Positions 16,059 to 21,016 of a DNA stretch of 64,000 nucleotides are shown in pieces. Both the position numbers and the translations under genes were made by a program. Within the stretch, counting starts at the first letter, position 1, and the number at the start of each line of letters is the position of its first letter. The notes beneath the pieces are model-generated. The model was not told the DNA's origin, searched no databases, and saw nothing but the letters and a program-made list of their open reading frames with translations. Source of the stretch: Candidatus Berkelbacteria bacterium (GTDB taxonomy: Bacteria; Patescibacteriota; UBA1384; JACPKC01); the NCBI GenBank assembly GCA_016187225.1, contig JACPKC010000010.1, positions 156,590-220,589 of the forward strand, read 5' to 3'.

Positions 16059-16180
16059 TATTTCTCCTCTCTATAAAACCTATTTTTGGACAAATAAAAT
16101 AACTACCACTGGTAGCTACATGGGGAGTCTAGCAGAGTCAGAAGTACTGTCAAGTTATAATGTGGATAATAGACGTATTC

Positions 16181-16222
16181 TCCAATAAAAATGAGAAACA
16201 CCTCGCGCAAGGCAAGGTGTTT
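16181..16222 (-). terminator. Rho-independent terminator downstream of the LytR_C gene
   Basis: AAACACCT...AGGTGTTT 8-bp stem; on the minus strand it is followed by CTCATTTTTATTGG. Confidence 0.6.
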
Positions 16223-16330
16223 CTTTGAAGCGTGGTTACGTGAGGAGGGTAACACGCAACCAACACTCATTTAAATATTATGAGAAAGTGATTTAGATGT
16301 CAAACAAAATTTCAGTGGTCTTATGCGGGG

Positions 16331-16975
16331 TTATTCTTGACCCGCAACAACTAACAACTGATCCGGCTTAGGTAAATCACTTTCTTTTAACTCGGCCGAT
16401 TCCCAATCGAGAAGATATTGAACCTCCTGGGCCTCGCTCATAAATCCAGGCAGGTAATAAATTGTTGAAATCTGGTGAGTCGTTTTGGCATTGCCAATCG
16501 ATGAAACATTAATTTGAGCGCTTTTTAATTGATCGCGAATCTTAGCGGCTACCCCAGTCGCGCTCCCGCCATTTAGGACTCTTACCGTGAAAGTCTTTGG
16601 AGTTTTGGGCGCAATTTTTTCTTCTTGAGGCGCGGAATTTGTGGTTGGTTGGTCGAGAATCACCAGCGCGTCGAGTGAATCTTCAATTTGTGCGACAGGT
16701 GCTTTAAATGTTTTTGCGGGCGCGCGAGTGTCATTATCTTCGTCAGCAGTTATAATTTCGTCTGTAAATTTTTCTTCAGCAAGTAATTTTTCGGACAATG
16801 ATTCTGTTTCGCGCGACAGTGTCGGTCGGATAAAAAGGAGCGCTAAAACTGCAACCACAGGCACAAACAATAAAACCCCATCTCTTGATCGCTTCGATCG
16901 AGGTCGAGTGTTGTGAGTTAGCTTTGATTGTAGAACCGTGCGCGGCGACGCTCGAATCCCATCAAAAGTCGGCAC
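16331..16975 (-). CDS. LytR_C (cell-envelope-related attenuator C-terminal) domain protein, membrane anchored
   Basis: VRVLNGGSATGVAAKIRDQLKSAQINVSSIGNA LytR_C motif; N-terminal TM. Confidence 0.65.
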   Translation of the reverse strand: MPTFDGIRASPRTVLQSKLTHNTRPRSKRSRDGVLLFVPVVAVLALLFIRPTLSRETESLSEKLLAEEKFTDEIITADEDNDTRAPAKTFKAPVAQIEDSLDALVILDQPTTNSAPQEEKIAPKTPKTFTVRVLNGGSATGVAAKIRDQLKSAQINVSSIGNAKTTHQISTIYYLPGFMSEAQEVQYLLDWESAELKESDLPKPDQLLVVAGQE

Positions 16976-16993: not shown

Positions 16994-17599
16994 TTAATAG
17001 ATAGGTGAAAATTGTCTAATCACACCGAGCACTCTCCCTTGAATTGAAACGTCATTGGTGTAGATCGGCGGATATTTAGGGTTAGCTGGTTGTAATCGAA
17101 TTCGCCCCTTCTCTTTATAATAGCGTTTGAGTGTCACATTCTCTTCTTCCAGAAGAGCCACCACAATATCCCCATTTTTTGGTTGTTTTGTGCGTTGAAT
17201 TACCACATAGTCTCCGTCTAAAATTCCATCGTGCACCATGGAGTCGCCGCTAACTTTAAGTGCGTATACATCATGACCCATCATTGAGCGTGGAATATCG
17301 ATCGTCTCGTTGGTTCGAATCGCCGCAATCGGATTACCCGCCGCGATCACGCCCAGAAGAGGAATCTCGTGAGTACGCTCATCCCAAGCGGGTGTTACTT
17401 GCACGGCACGCGCGCCTTCATCTTTACAAATATGGCCCTTGAGTCTTAGTGATTCGATATGCTCCGCGACTGTCGCTACCGATTTCAATTCAAAATGTTG
17501 GGCAATTTCTCGGTAGCTCGGCGCATACTCATGATCATTGATATACGTTCGTAAGTACTCAAGAACGGCTTTTTGTTTGGGTGTAGGAAGCTGGTGCAT
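16994..17599 (-). CDS. lexA: SOS repressor LexA (S24 peptidase)
   Basis: N-terminal wHTH, an AAG cleavage site (VIAAGNP), and SGDSM / TLKRYY Ser-Lys dyad motifs. Confidence 0.9.
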   Translation of the reverse strand: MHQLPTPKQKAVLEYLRTYINDHEYAPSYREIAQHFELKSVATVAEHIESLRLKGHICKDEGARAVQVTPAWDERTHEIPLLGVIAAGNPIAAIRTNETIDIPRSMMGHDVYALKVSGDSMVHDGILDGDYVVIQRTKQPKNGDIVVALLEEENVTLKRYYKEKGRIRLQPANPKYPPIYTNDVSIQGRVLGVIRQFSPIY

Positions 17600-17615
17600 A
17601 GTGTTACTTTATACC

Positions 17616-17644
17616 GAACAAAAACCGTAAACAATAGAATTTAT
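17616..17644 (-). promoter_or_regulatory. Putative lexA promoter (-10 TATAAA) with a candidate LexA operator
   Basis: Minus strand reads TTGTTTACGGTTTTTGTTCGGTATAAAGTAACACTATG. The block CGGTTTTTGTTCGG abuts the -10 and is almost identical to the block at the dinB promoter. Confidence 0.45.
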
Positions 17645-18912
17645 CCACATAAGAGTCTTCTGCTTCTTCCGTCTAAAAGGTTGTGCATTTTTACTCCAAC
17701 GCTCCAGCCGCTTTGCACACTTGTTTCGCCAAAGCGGGCTCGAATTTTATTGATTGCCATTGTCAGGTTTGATGAATTAGCGTCGAACGGTAATCGAACA
17801 GGCGCTTGAATTTTTGGAGTCAGAACGGAAACAGTGACACTTGGCATGCGTACTAAAGTCTCCAGAGTTAATTTGTCGCCTCGCTGGCAGGCCGAGGAGA
17901 TGAGCTTCCAGGCATAGCATTCGATATCTCTGTCTGATTCAATTCGGTATGAAGTCTGAAGAGTTGAGCCCCAGCTGGGCGCATTTGTGCGGCGTAAATA
18001 AATTTGAATTGATTGACCGACAAATCCCCTCTTTCTTAGTCGATTCCCCACTTTCTCGCTCAAACGAAATAAGATTGGTCGTAATTCGCGTACCGGTACG
18101 TCGTGCGGCAAAGTGTATTGATGACCGATCGATTGTTCAGCTTTTTGCCGCCAATATGGAACAACACGAGCAAGGTCGATGCCCTGCCCAATCAAATGCA
18201 GTTCTTTTTCGTATGGGAAAACTAATGTCCGCAAGGTATCAAGTGATTGTTGGGTAAGATCGGCCAATGTCTGAATACCGGCGGCGCGCAGTCTTCGGCC
18301 AAGCCGTGGCCCGATACCACACAATTCCTCAACCTGTGTTTGGGTAAAAAGTTCTACTTGTGTCCAGGCCGTTACCCCCTCCCGGCGCAATTTTGCAACT
18401 GTTTTCTCCTCGGCGTTATTTAAAAGTGCGACAAGTCCATCGGGTTTTTGCGATTCGCTTGCCAATTTAGCAAGACGTTTATTACGCGCGATCCCAATCG
18501 AAGCGGTCAGCACCGGCCCGAGTTGATTGTGAAATTTAGTTTTAATCGTGCGAGCGATATTGATAGCTTGTTCCAAGCTAGTATCGATCTCAATGAAGCC
18601 CTCATCGATCGAGAAGGGCTCGACCGCCGGTGAGAATTGCTCAAGAATTTGAAATATATGCTGACTAATTGCCTGATATCGTTCGTAGACGGGTGGCACA
18701 ATGATGAGTTGCGGACAGTGTTTGAACGCTTCCCGACCGTTCATGCCTACCCGAACACCCAGCCGTTTTGCTTCTCTCGAGGGCGCCACAATCACTGATC
18801 GTGTGCCTGGTTTGCCACCCACGCCAATTGCTTTGCCACGAAGCGCCGGATTATATTGTTGCTCGACTGAAGCAAAGAAGCTGTTCATGTCGATGTGTAA
18901 AATCCAGTTCAT
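17641..18912 (-). CDS. dinB: DNA polymerase IV (Y-family, DinB)
   Basis: MNWILHIDMNSFFASVEQ start with a GGAG RBS at spacing 7. The ORF track extends to 18972, but there is no RBS there. Confidence 0.9.
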   Translation of the reverse strand: MNWILHIDMNSFFASVEQQYNPALRGKAIGVGGKPGTRSVIVAPSREAKRLGVRVGMNGREAFKHCPQLIIVPPVYERYQAISQHIFQILEQFSPAVEPFSIDEGFIEIDTSLEQAINIARTIKTKFHNQLGPVLTASIGIARNKRLAKLASESQKPDGLVALLNNAEEKTVAKLRREGVTAWTQVELFTQTQVEELCGIGPRLGRRLRAAGIQTLADLTQQSLDTLRTLVFPYEKELHLIGQGIDLARVVPYWRQKAEQSIGHQYTLPHDVPVRELRPILFRLSEKVGNRLRKRGFVGQSIQIYLRRTNAPSWGSTLQTSYRIESDRDIECYAWKLISSACQRGDKLTLETLVRMPSVTVSVLTPKIQAPVRLPFDANSSNLTMAINKIRARFGETSVQSGWSVGVKMHNLLDGRSRRLLCG

Positions 18913-18991
18913 TTTGATCTCCATTTCGAGTTCCACCATCTGCCAACTTGCGAGGGCGAAGTTGAGAACCATTCACAAACCAGCCTTGTTT

Positions 18992-19020
18992 AATTATACA
19001 CGAACAAAAGCCGAACAAAT
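18992..19020 (-). promoter_or_regulatory. Putative dinB promoter (-10 TATAAT) overlapping a GTTC-N7-GTTC candidate LexA operator
   Basis: Minus strand reads TTTGTTCGGCTTTTGTTCGTGTATAAT. The plus strand reads GAAC(19002-05)-N7-GAAC(19013-16). Confidence 0.5.
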
Positions 19021-19021
19021 T

Positions 19022-19942
19022 GTGGAACTAATTTTGGTCGGCGTTGCCGTGGGGATGTTCTTCTTTGGGATGGGGATGACCAGGCGAGAGTCTGGGGCTT
19101 CGATCAAAAATAAGACTCCGATCAAAAAAGATCTACAGGGTGCCAAGATTGGTGTTGCCTGCATTGAGCCGAATGGCTCGGTTCACGACCTCGAGGCCGA
19201 GGTGATCAATGCCGTCCTGGGGAATGGCGGACACTGTGTGGCCACCAATCGAAAACGAGTGCATGAGCTCATGAAGGGGCTCGACGTTACCGACGGTGGT
19301 GGCCGAATAGTTAATGCCGATCTACTGATCGCCGGCATTGTTACCGAGCAGACCGAGGAGCTCCAACTTGGGGGAGCGGCGACTTATACCCAGGAATTTA
19401 TTGCTTGGGTATTCCACCACTATCCGCGGGCGCTGGACAGGTATCAGTACTTCAAATCTGATTACGAAATTGGTGGTGACAGCAGGTGGAAACCATACCC
19501 GGAAATGGATCTCAAAAAGATCCAGGCACAGTACCAGAAACAGATGCAGGTACAAACCACTGTCTGGAGTGCTCGCAAGCAGTCCCGTCGAACCGTCACC
19601 GTCGATTTTCGTTGCTTTAGCGCCTATGGCGAGGTAATGGGCGCCGGAGTTCTGACGGAGACTGTCAAGAATGCTGACAGCCCAGCGAGCCTGCTGACGC
19701 TCGCCCAGCAGATCGTCGCCCGGTTGCACGTCCACCGGTCGGAAGCGGAGCTCGAGCTCTGGTACGGCGACGCCCGAGCTGCCGCCATTCATCGGCCGAT
19801 CGTGCCACTCGCACCACCCCAGCTCCCGACGAGCTCCAGCCACGTTGAAGAGCAGGCTCCTCCTGCTCCATGGCGTGAAGAACAACCGGAGGGATCACTG
19901 CTCTGCGACTATCGCACCAAGCGGATAGGGGTGGACGACTAG
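19022..19942 (+). CDS. Hypothetical protein A of the GC-rich island, possible N-terminal TM helix; start uncertain (GTG 19022 or ATG 19055)
   Basis: Long ORF in the only open frame. Hydrophobic N-terminus ILVGVAVGMFFFGMGM. Ends 15 nt before a strong terminator. No recognised domain. Confidence 0.45.
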   Translation: MELILVGVAVGMFFFGMGMTRRESGASIKNKTPIKKDLQGAKIGVACIEPNGSVHDLEAEVINAVLGNGGHCVATNRKRVHELMKGLDVTDGGGRIVNADLLIAGIVTEQTEELQLGGAATYTQEFIAWVFHHYPRALDRYQYFKSDYEIGGDSRWKPYPEMDLKKIQAQYQKQMQVQTTVWSARKQSRRTVTVDFRCFSAYGEVMGAGVLTETVKNADSPASLLTLAQQIVARLHVHRSEAELELWYGDARAAAIHRPIVPLAPPQLPTSSSHVEEQAPPAPWREEQPEGSLLCDYRTKRIGVDD

Positions 19943-19956
19943 AAGACGGGTTTGAA

Positions 19957-19983
19957 ATGCGGCCCACCCGGGCCGCATTTTTT
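19957..19983 (+). terminator. Strong rho-independent terminator after island gene A
   Basis: ATGCGGCCC-ACCC-GGGCCGCAT 9-bp GC stem followed by TTTTT. Confidence 0.8.
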
Positions 19984-20139
19984 ATTGCTGAATATTTTTG
20001 AGACCATTGAAAAAAGTGTTCATGTTCTAACTTGTCGAGAACTATTCATTACGAGTTTCTCCACCAAAAGGTCCAGGTATAGTCCTTAGTTCTTTTACAG
20101 ATGTTTCCCAGGGACATTAAACGAAGGAGGGTGATGACG

Positions 20140-20442
20140 ATGTCGACCCCATCGATCACGCCTATGAATACAACCCCGAATGAATTTGCCGATGAACGAG
20201 TGAGACCGCATGCGGACTTCGTTTACGACTCAAACACTTTGCCAACTCTCAATAAGCAGGAGAAGAATCTCCGCAAAGTCCTGGGAATGAAGAAAAGTGC
20301 CCAGATAGTCCGGATTCCGTGGCAAGTTGAGATACCTGCCGAGGCCGATGGCCTCATGCTGGTTTCCTCGCTTTCCGATCTCGGCAAAGTGTTTGGTCTT
20401 AATGACCCGCTCGGTGAGAATTACGGCCCACTCTGTATTTAG
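20140..20442 (+). CDS. Hypothetical protein B of the island (about 100 aa)
   Basis: AGGAGG RBS 9 nt upstream of the ATG at 20140; elevated GC; no recognised domain. Confidence 0.45.
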   Translation: MSTPSITPMNTTPNEFADERVRPHADFVYDSNTLPTLNKQEKNLRKVLGMKKSAQIVRIPWQVEIPAEADGLMLVSSLSDLGKVFGLNDPLGENYGPLCI

Positions 20443-20445
20443 ATT

Positions 20446-20916
20446 GTGGAGCGAGTCGGGAAGTCCCGGCAACCCTTTGCCAACTACTGCTACTGCGAGG
20501 ATGTATTTTTCAGAGAGCGCATTCGTCTTCACACCGACGTCCGTAGCCGCTGGGAAACACTTGAGGAAAAACACTCAGTGGAACAACTCCGGCTGTTTGA
20601 GCTCCCGGTCTCAACCGGCAGATTATACCAAGGCTACTCACCCCGAAACGCTCGGCAGGACGCCTTCATAAAAGGTCAGTTGTCACTTGATCCGGCCACA
20701 GGCGTCTGTGTTCTTGCGGCTTGGCCGAACCGACTGACTCGTTATCCGGAAACCTTTATGGATTTTCCAGGTGCGGAATACGCGCCGTGCGCTGACGGCG
20801 ACTTCGTCCATGTCCTGTCTTTCAGCTGGGAAGCTGGCGATTCTTGGCTTCGCTCCGTCCGGGCCGAGTTTGTCTTCGGATGCTATGGGTCCGCCGTGGT
20901 GTTCCTCCCGGAGTGA
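20446..20916 (+). CDS. Hypothetical protein C of the island (156 aa), translationally coupled to B
   Basis: The GTG start lies 3 nt after the stop of B; elevated GC; no recognised domain. Confidence 0.45.
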   Translation: MERVGKSRQPFANYCYCEDVFFRERIRLHTDVRSRWETLEEKHSVEQLRLFELPVSTGRLYQGYSPRNARQDAFIKGQLSLDPATGVCVLAAWPNRLTRYPETFMDFPGAEYAPCADGDFVHVLSFSWEAGDSWLRSVRAEFVFGCYGSAVVFLPE

Positions 20917-20973
20917 TATCCCTGGGGACTTGAGGCCTTGGTGTCTTTTGTTCCCCTGGAACACGTTCAGGAG

Positions 20974-21014
20974 ATTGGGAGTGGATTGGATGTTACCCGT
21001 CCCGTCCACTCCTT
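20974..21014 (+). terminator. Rho-independent terminator after island genes B-C
   Basis: GGAGTGGA...TCCACTCC stem followed by TTTTTTATT. Confidence 0.7.
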
Positions 21015-21016
21015 TT

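Follow-up and report, generated by a model that had tools for sequence, protein, structure and literature searches.

A predicted membrane-anchored protein divergent from dinB-lexA across a candidate LexA operator in a Candidatus Berkelbacteria contig

The locus

Protein A is encoded in a 64 kb stretch (the window, meaning the whole of the DNA analysed) of contig JACPKC010000010.1 from Candidatus Berkelbacteria, a member of the candidate phyla radiation (CPR; Patescibacteria). Runs SRR12113424 and SRR12113420 contain this contig in assembled form. The gene for A is transcribed divergently from an SOS operon that begins with dinB and contains lexA. An original prediction, made from the sequence alone, placed A at 19022-19942, described a hydrophobic segment at its start and a divergent lexA/dinB unit beyond a putative operator, and proposed that A is an SOS-induced, membrane-anchored division inhibitor. 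The open reading frame, hydropathy and annotation of the neighbours agree with the position, the segment and the divergent arrangement; A does diverge from the dinB-lexA operon, but its immediate partner is dinB and not lexA itself. The features on which the analysis turns are as follows.

19022-19942, plus strand: coding sequence of protein A (open reading frame and translation; homologues P0002 and P0003 align from residue 1; 17-cluster family)
19022-19078, plus strand: N-terminal transmembrane anchor, residues 1-19, MELILVGVAVGMFFFGMGM (hydropathy, charge, AlphaFold2 helix), followed by a Lys/Arg-rich juxtamembrane linker, residues 20-40
19142-19801, plus strand: predicted globular alpha/beta domain, residues ~41-260, with a CsgG/LptE/PelC/TolB-N-like fold (AlphaFold2 model, fold searches)
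19802-19939, plus strand: Pro/Glu-rich C-terminal tail, predicted to be disordered, residues ~261-306 (predicted local distance difference test score, pLDDT, <60; guanine-plus-cytosine content, GC, 0.62-0.63; poorly conserved in A1 and A2)
19000-19017, minus strand: predicted LexA operator between dinB and A, direct repeat TGTTCGG-CTTT-TGTTCGT (GTTCG-N6-GTTCG) (direct repeat, 13-mer count, other Berkelbacteria)
18992-18998, both strands: overlapping -10 elements of a putative bidirectional promoter, TATAAT on the minus strand (18998 to 18993, for dinB) and AATTAT on the plus strand (18992-18997, for A)
17641-18912, minus strand: dinB, Y-family polymerase, 423 aa, first gene of the divergent SOS operon (Pfam IMS 1.3e-40 and IMS_C; GGAG ribosome-binding site before ATG 18912)
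16994-17599, minus strand: lexA (Pfam LexA_DNA_bind and Peptidase_S24; LexA proteins 60-79% identical in other Berkelbacteria)

Gene and start codon

The plus-strand frame is open to TAG 19940-19942, and from GTG 19022 it yields a product of 306 aa with the N-terminus MELILVGVAVGMFFFGMGMTRRE. NCBI lists an identical protein, HYW32_03670 (Candidatus Berkelbacteria), called from TTG 18962 with 326 aa (P0001). A is a real gene, as shown by this annotation, by its homologues and by a family of 17 clusters; the reading frame is intact and all family-conserved residues are kept. The gene is followed by one feature, and one alternative start precedes it:

19954-19981, plus strand: strong intrinsic terminator downstream of A (stem of 12 bp followed by a T run)
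18962-19021, plus strand: alternative 20-codon N-terminal extension from TTG 18962, with GAGGG at 18951-18955 upstream (the start chosen by database gene callers; shares DNA with the dinB promoter and operator)

The TTG 18962 start appears less likely because the N-termini of the family, with Met and Glu or Asp within four residues and then the helix, match GTG 19022. In P0003 and P0004 the start is fixed by a strong Shine-Dalgarno sequence directly 5' of the Met that precedes the helix. ATG 19055 was rejected as the start, since it would cut the helix to 8 hydrophobic residues, and the antisense open reading frames 19322-19885 and 19665-19967 were rejected as GC-rich artefacts opposite a conserved coding frame.

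Family and membrane anchor

A word-indexed search of 5.8 billion proteins found two homologues with 41-44% identity, a profile search of that database, limited by its word filter, gave 3 proteins, and an exhaustive hidden Markov model search of 1.84 billion cluster representatives brought the family to 17 clusters in all. The family is thus very small and uncharacterised, and is so far known only from Patescibacteria; the three members with taxon labels are assigned to Berkelbacteria or to 'Patescibacteria group'. Neither A nor any of the 17 members gave anything above threshold in Pfam, NCBIfam, PHROGs, PADLOC or PDB sequences, and a near-match to WWE (E 0.011) lies below the cut-off and was rejected. 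Scanning IMG/VR and JGI metagenome contigs with the A profile gave no relatives, and therefore there is no viral link.

The hydrophobic N-terminal segment is a transmembrane helix, as the original prediction had supposed. Mean Kyte-Doolittle hydropathy is 1.97 over residues 1-19, which form the one hydrophobic segment of A; AlphaFold models residues 3-19 as a helix, with a disordered linker between helix and domain. In 14 of the 17 members a 19-residue segment at the extreme N-terminus has a hydropathy >1.6 (1.03-1.54 in the other three). The charge pattern is uniform: Lys and Arg are missing before the segment in all 17 members, Asp or Glu occurs there in about two-thirds, and the 15 residues after the segment hold 1-7 Lys or Arg (mean ~4, and 4 in A). 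By the positive-inside rule, applied to this pattern in 17/17 members, A is predicted to be a reverse signal anchor, with the N-terminus outside and the C-terminus inside (N-out/C-in) and the globular part cytoplasmic. At the N-terminus of A we found no basic n-region of a signal peptide and no lipobox.

Predicted fold

AlphaFold2 with the 17-sequence alignment gave a model of A with mean pLDDT 79.4 and a core >90; a 3-sequence alignment gave 44.5. Foldseek against PDB matched the model to the pre-pore form of CsgG (E 6.5e-6) and to LptE (6e-4), and its top match in BFVD is a phage CsgG. Three independent fold searches agree on the fold, and the domain is accordingly modelled as a non-enzymatic alpha/beta scaffold of the CsgG/LptE/PelC/TolB-N-like kind. 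The core is the one common to CsgG, LptE, PelC, TraT, DUF799, TolB-N and LpoB, so far as the model goes, though by sequence A has no match to families of this class at E <= 1 in Pfam or at E <= 10 in PDB sequences. No homology of A to an unrelated enzyme was found, a point on which the original prediction had depended; nor was there similarity to any known division inhibitor.

The CsgG/LptE class comprises non-enzymatic scaffold or plug modules of envelope machines, several of which form rings (9-mer in CsgG, 12-mer in PelC, 10-mer in TraT). A differs from them in several ways. Its structural relatives are tethered by a lipidated Cys and are periplasmic or sit in the outer membrane, whereas A is tethered by a transmembrane helix with reverse charge bias and without a lipobox, and is predicted to be cytoplasmic, in a presumably monoderm CPR bacterium. 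It also carries an extra long polar insertion of beta-hairpin and helix (residues ~108-200), which is absent from the family members of 188-205 aa, and the disordered tail. A CsgG-like membrane pore was rejected for A since the long beta-strands are polar.

LexA operator

The intergenic space between dinB and A is 109 nt. It holds two copies of CGAACAAA, 11 nt apart, and read on the dinB strand the operator runs TTTGTTCGGCTTTTGTTCG-TG-TATAAT. In the whole 64 kb there are exactly two copies of the 13-mer CGGYTTTTGTTCG (17615-17627 and 19001-19013), on the minus strand both times and just 5' of the TATAAW -10 boxes of lexA and dinB; 0.01 copies would be expected, and 0 of 100 shuffles contained two. 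The copy at 17615-17627 belongs to a further site:

17614-17631, minus strand: lexA-proximal predicted LexA operator TTTACGG-TTTT-TGTTCGG, directly 5' of TATAAA (13-mer, matrix scan)

The same direct repeat stands directly 5' of the -10 box at dinB or lexA in two other Berkelbacteria: as CCTGTTCGGTCCGTGTTCGGGTATCGT before dinB-lexA in L039, and in L041 as TTGTTCGGTTTGTGTTCGGTACTATAAT before DUF6504-dinB and CGTTCGTATTATGTTCGGTACAGTAT before lexA. A position weight matrix built from six sites gave the site at 19000-19017 the top score in the window (24.7), followed by the lexA site (23.9) and a next best of 14.6. It also found an untrained site, ACTACGGTCTTTGTTCGG, just before lexA in L039, which mirrors the degenerate first half-site of the lexA box in the window. 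The operator that the original prediction had called putative is thus supported by a conserved repeat, by two copies against 0.01 expected and by the same placement in L039 and L041, and its identity as a genuine LexA-type direct repeat of Berkelbacteria is well supported by these comparisons.

The alphaproteobacterial LexA box is GTTC-N7-GTTC (PMC8565304). The operator, GTTCG-N6-GTTCG, has that architecture, overlapping the core promoters of lexA and dinB; compared with the alphaproteobacterial box the Berkelbacteria form is extended, and TGTTCGG-N4-TGTTCGG is a testable candidate for the Berkelbacteria LexA box. The architecture agrees with the reported recognition of a direct repeat by Patescibacteria LexA (PMC7739468). 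Other CPR lexA loci have candidate boxes that are palindromic and lie between the -35 and -10 of lexA (found among L007, L009, L010 and L011): GGTGAG-N6-CTCACC in Peribacteria and Gracilibacteria, and TGTACG-TT-CGTACA on a Peregrinibacteria contig. The LexA motif is therefore not uniform across CPR. The lexA relatives in the pattern-scanned genome and metagenome contigs are <=44% identical and were useless for footprinting.

A third exact GTTCG-N6-GTTCG, GTTCGATTACCGTTCG, lies at 17784-17799 on the minus strand, in the 3' part of dinB and ~185 nt upstream of lexA. It is oriented as the two operators are, and could be either an accessory site for LexA or a match by chance. As a separate observation, lexA appears to be leaderless (17600-17640, minus strand): the -10 box TATAAA ends 8 nt before the ATG, and no Shine-Dalgarno sequence is present. 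In L039 dinB is arranged in a similar way (TATCGT, 6 nt, ATG).

Promoter of A

A lacks its own canonical promoter, and there is no Shine-Dalgarno sequence at GTG 19022. The only plausible plus-strand -10 is AATTAT at 18992-18997, the mirror of the dinB -10; positions 2 and 6 of the hexamers on opposite strands base-pair, and the predicted transcription start sites, A18986 (minus) and A19004 (plus), are both adenines and 18 bp apart. Among bacterial bidirectional promoters a spacing of 18 bp is the commonest arrangement, and such promoters are enriched in horizontally acquired DNA (bioRxiv 10.1101/2020.01.31.928960). The overlapping -10 elements match the geometry described there by Warman et al., but here the promoter is purely predicted.

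Relative to the predicted starts, the operator would span -14 to -31 for dinB and -4 to +14 for A. Only 4 nt separate the end of the operator from GTG 19022, and wherever in the 109-nt spacer the plus-strand promoter lies, a transcript that reaches this codon has to cross the operator.

Genomic context of A and its homologues

Linkage to lexA is not a property of the family, for in all six of the other family contexts lexA does not adjoin the A homologue. P0002 and P0004 lie between a small gene and the gene for RNase J, P0006 between rpsI and glnA, P0016 between an SLT gene and ahpC, and P0014 and P0018 between nusA and wecG, in a hisS-relA-clpB-nusA block that is also present in the window. 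P0014 is on the same contig as lexA (L041), ~10 kb away, and has no LexA box upstream although the boxes of that genome are clear. Upstream of the homologues in L023, L024 and L025 no site scored >12 with the matrix. Expression signals of the homologues are ordinary: a canonical -10 box and a strong Shine-Dalgarno sequence precede those in L019 and L022-L024, in most cases together with a TTGAC -35, and those in L016 and L001 show a box resembling a -10 and the Shine-Dalgarno sequence GAGGG.

The slot that A occupies is variable. Between SpoU/hisS and dinB, L039 (genes of 245, 400 and 460 aa) and L041 carry unrelated genes, and tblastn gave no match. A has a GC of 0.569 and a third-position GC (GC3) of 0.642, against 0.472 +/- 0.027 and 0.437 +/- 0.046 for 28 other open reading frames, and its closest homologues are on contigs of ~55% GC. 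A is thus an outlier in GC, and in view of this and of the variable slot a horizontal origin is probable. Direct repeats and att-like sites were sought on the flanks of the 19022-21016 island, and nothing convincing turned up.

Some side observations concern the homologues. The ~95 nt directly 5' of the P0003 and P0004 genes (L001:66-157 and L016:9695-9788) are ~94% identical; the two proteins are 32% identical, and the DNA upstream of the shared ~95 nt is unrelated. The conserved stretch looks like a promoter and 5' leader RNA; it has no Rfam match and is absent from the window. In L016, the Patescibacteria contig that carries P0004, an untranslated gap of ~560 nt separates the A homologue from RNase J. 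The 13-mer AATCACGAACTAC lies upstream of both recA and RNase J in that contig (~10770 and ~16487), and its recA is preceded by a strong inverted repeat, ATTGTGACGA-N10-TCGTCACAAT; the upstream regions of recA and of the A homologue there share no motifs.

Interpretation

The best explanation, to which we assign a probability of roughly 55%, is that A is a horizontally acquired single-pass membrane protein of a scaffold family, with a cytoplasmic domain, driven by the reverse face of the LexA-controlled dinB promoter. A would be a compositionally foreign arrival in the variable slot between the SpoU methylase gene and dinB that has captured a promoter, being transcribed from the reverse face with a start near 19004. 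One LexA dimer on the operator would then repress A and dinB together, and cleavage of LexA stimulated by RecA would induce both. Taken by itself, LexA control of A seems fairly probable, and A is probably damage-inducible in this genome. The product is most likely a membrane-proximal protein-protein scaffold or adaptor, and most likely not an extracytoplasmic division inhibitor of the YneA class. The reality of the gene, the transmembrane segment, the fold, operator conservation, the unconserved lexA linkage and the GC anomaly were established in silico; LexA binding, transcription start sites, topology and cellular role are what we infer.

Several points count against this explanation. GTG 19022 has no Shine-Dalgarno sequence, a feature of ~11 of 16 neighbouring genes, and the gene callers choose TTG 18962, which has one (GAGGG). 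Were TTG 18962 the real start, the operator would lie inside the coding region, the promoter would be unidentified and the topology call would be ambiguous. The plus-strand -10 is weak, matching at 4 of 6 positions, and lacks a good -35; no promoter on the plus strand of the dinB/A spacer came out of a consensus scan. The weight matrix was trained on the sites that it scores, with one independent site, and the structure model depends on the 17-sequence alignment.

The alternative that survives best is coincidental adjacency, which we regard as possible but distinctly less probable: A would be an acquired or relocated housekeeping membrane scaffold, the operator would serve dinB-lexA only, and expression of A would be independent of LexA or minimal. 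The unrelated genes that fill the slot in L039 and L041, the GC and GC3 of A, its homologues that are never LexA-linked and its missing Shine-Dalgarno sequence would all suit such a neighbour. The orientation of the operator and its position relative to the -10 are moreover those of dinB, exactly as in other Berkelbacteria, and in L039 the divergent gene begins ~160 nt from the box. In the window, with its 109-nt spacer and 4-nt gap, a plus-strand transcript reaching GTG must instead start within DNA occupied by LexA or read through it, and the intact reading frame with all family-conserved residues argues for expression.

It is unlikely that A faces outward as an extracytoplasmic envelope scaffold, with TTG 18962 as the true start or with a failure of the topology rule, so that a CsgG/LptE/LpoB-like domain would have the role that its structural relatives among lipoproteins have in diderms, the organisation or regulation of a machine of the cell wall or surface. 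The good Shine-Dalgarno sequence of TTG 18962 would favour this, as would the charge of the extension, which adds 3 Lys or Arg to the 15 residues N-terminal of the helix (4 in the whole 20 aa), and cysteines conserved in the closest subfamily. Set against it are the charge bias of all 17 members, without Lys or Arg before the helix and rich in them after it, the P0004 and P0003 starts fixed by strong Shine-Dalgarno sequences directly before the helix, and the missing n-region and lipobox in A.

The proposal that A is an SOS-induced membrane-anchored division inhibitor, blocking the divisome after DNA damage like YneA, ChiZ, DivS, SosA or SidA, has the transmembrane helix, the divergence from dinB-lexA and the conserved operator in its favour, but lacks support for the inhibitor function itself (topology, size, the missing LysM and the missing lexA synteny); we hold it to be improbable. 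What makes it attractive is that A, like YneA, ChiZ/Rv2719c, DivS and SosA, combines a single transmembrane segment with divergence from a lexA-containing unit across a LexA-type operator in the shared region, here abutting its own start, and with a lineage-specific sequence. At 306 aa A is far larger than the class, in which inhibitors other than SosA have roughly 29-165 aa. SosA has 77 aa, and the class is described by one transmembrane segment, a C-terminus outside the cell, conserved synteny with lexA and, usually, a LysM domain (PMC6851548). A departs from this description: it diverges from dinB and not lexA, its C-terminus is predicted to be cytoplasmic (N-out/C-in, the opposite of YneA, ChiZ and SosA), and its lexA linkage is unconserved (absent in 6/6 other family contexts). 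No LysM or other Pfam domain was found in A or any of the 17 members, although a LysM or peptidoglycan-binding domain is also absent from DivS and SosA. Missing homology does not disqualify A, as the known inhibitors share no sequence similarity with one another (PMC6851548).

Regulation across the family likewise speaks against an inhibitor, given P0014 without a LexA box in a genome with identifiable boxes, the canonical, constitutive-looking promoters that otherwise drive the family, and A as a GC outlier in a variable slot. ZipA and EzrA have an N-terminal transmembrane anchor with N-out/C-in topology, a charged linker and a globular cytoplasmic domain. The likeness of A to them is one of topology only; a ZipA-like arrangement would place the domain beside FtsZ and FtsA. 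Beyond the position of A nothing suggests the blocking of cell division.

The lexA operon itself holds a better architectural candidate:

16331-16975, minus strand: LytR_C-domain protein, starting 18 nt after the lexA stop, with a strong Shine-Dalgarno sequence, CAGGAGGAGT-GTG

This protein is predicted to have a basic cytoplasmic N-terminal tail, one transmembrane segment and an external LytR_C cell-envelope domain (N-in, C-out). It would be cotranscribed with lexA, and the order of lexA followed by LytR_C is kept in the other Berkelbacteria L039, L040 and L041. On this comparison the LytR_C protein is a better match than A to the architecture of YneA and ChiZ.

A long shot, in our view, is that an acquired, N-anchored cytoplasmic CsgG/LptE-like protein captured by a LexA-controlled bidirectional promoter represents an SOS effector of a new kind, here in a member of CPR. 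It could for example be a checkpoint protein whose target, be it the divisome or some other machine of the membrane, is reached from the cytoplasm; to our knowledge every known membrane SOS inhibitor acts from outside.

If A is truly controlled by LexA, it would be a concrete case of an accessory gene joining a minimal SOS regulon of CPR by landing at a symmetric promoter, and a first way into the function of an unannotated membrane protein family, found in Patescibacteria only, whose fold is otherwise known from lipoprotein machines of the outer membrane. The analysis supplies a testable LexA box for Berkelbacteria. On present evidence A does not identify a division checkpoint of CPR, for which the conserved linkage of lexA and LytR_C is the better lead.

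Other observations

Downstream of A, the GC-rich island contains a 100-aa hypothetical protein, HYW32_03675 (20140-20442, plus strand), with a good Shine-Dalgarno sequence and without a family match. Abutting it is a candidate open reading frame of 156 aa with a GTG start (20446-20916, plus strand; GC 0.57), which the gene callers did not call and which is absent from the protein collection.

No RNA family was found in the region with Rfam. A conserved, apparently structured leader of ~200 nt precedes the gene of a CHAP peptidoglycan hydrolase (16059-16275, minus strand), and also occurs in L039 (9425-9640) and L040. It belongs to no Rfam family, the sole match being a sub-threshold preQ1-II (E 0.63). 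It is preceded by a LexA box in L039 and L040, and in the window by a TTGACA-17-TAATAT promoter. The leaders have in common the blocks GCGTGTTACCCTCCTCACG, CTTGACAG and CTACCAG-GGTAGT, and have hairpins at equivalent positions with different sequences, in genomes of 46% and 61% GC. Within the leader, CCCUCCUC could pair with the Shine-Dalgarno sequence of the CHAP gene.

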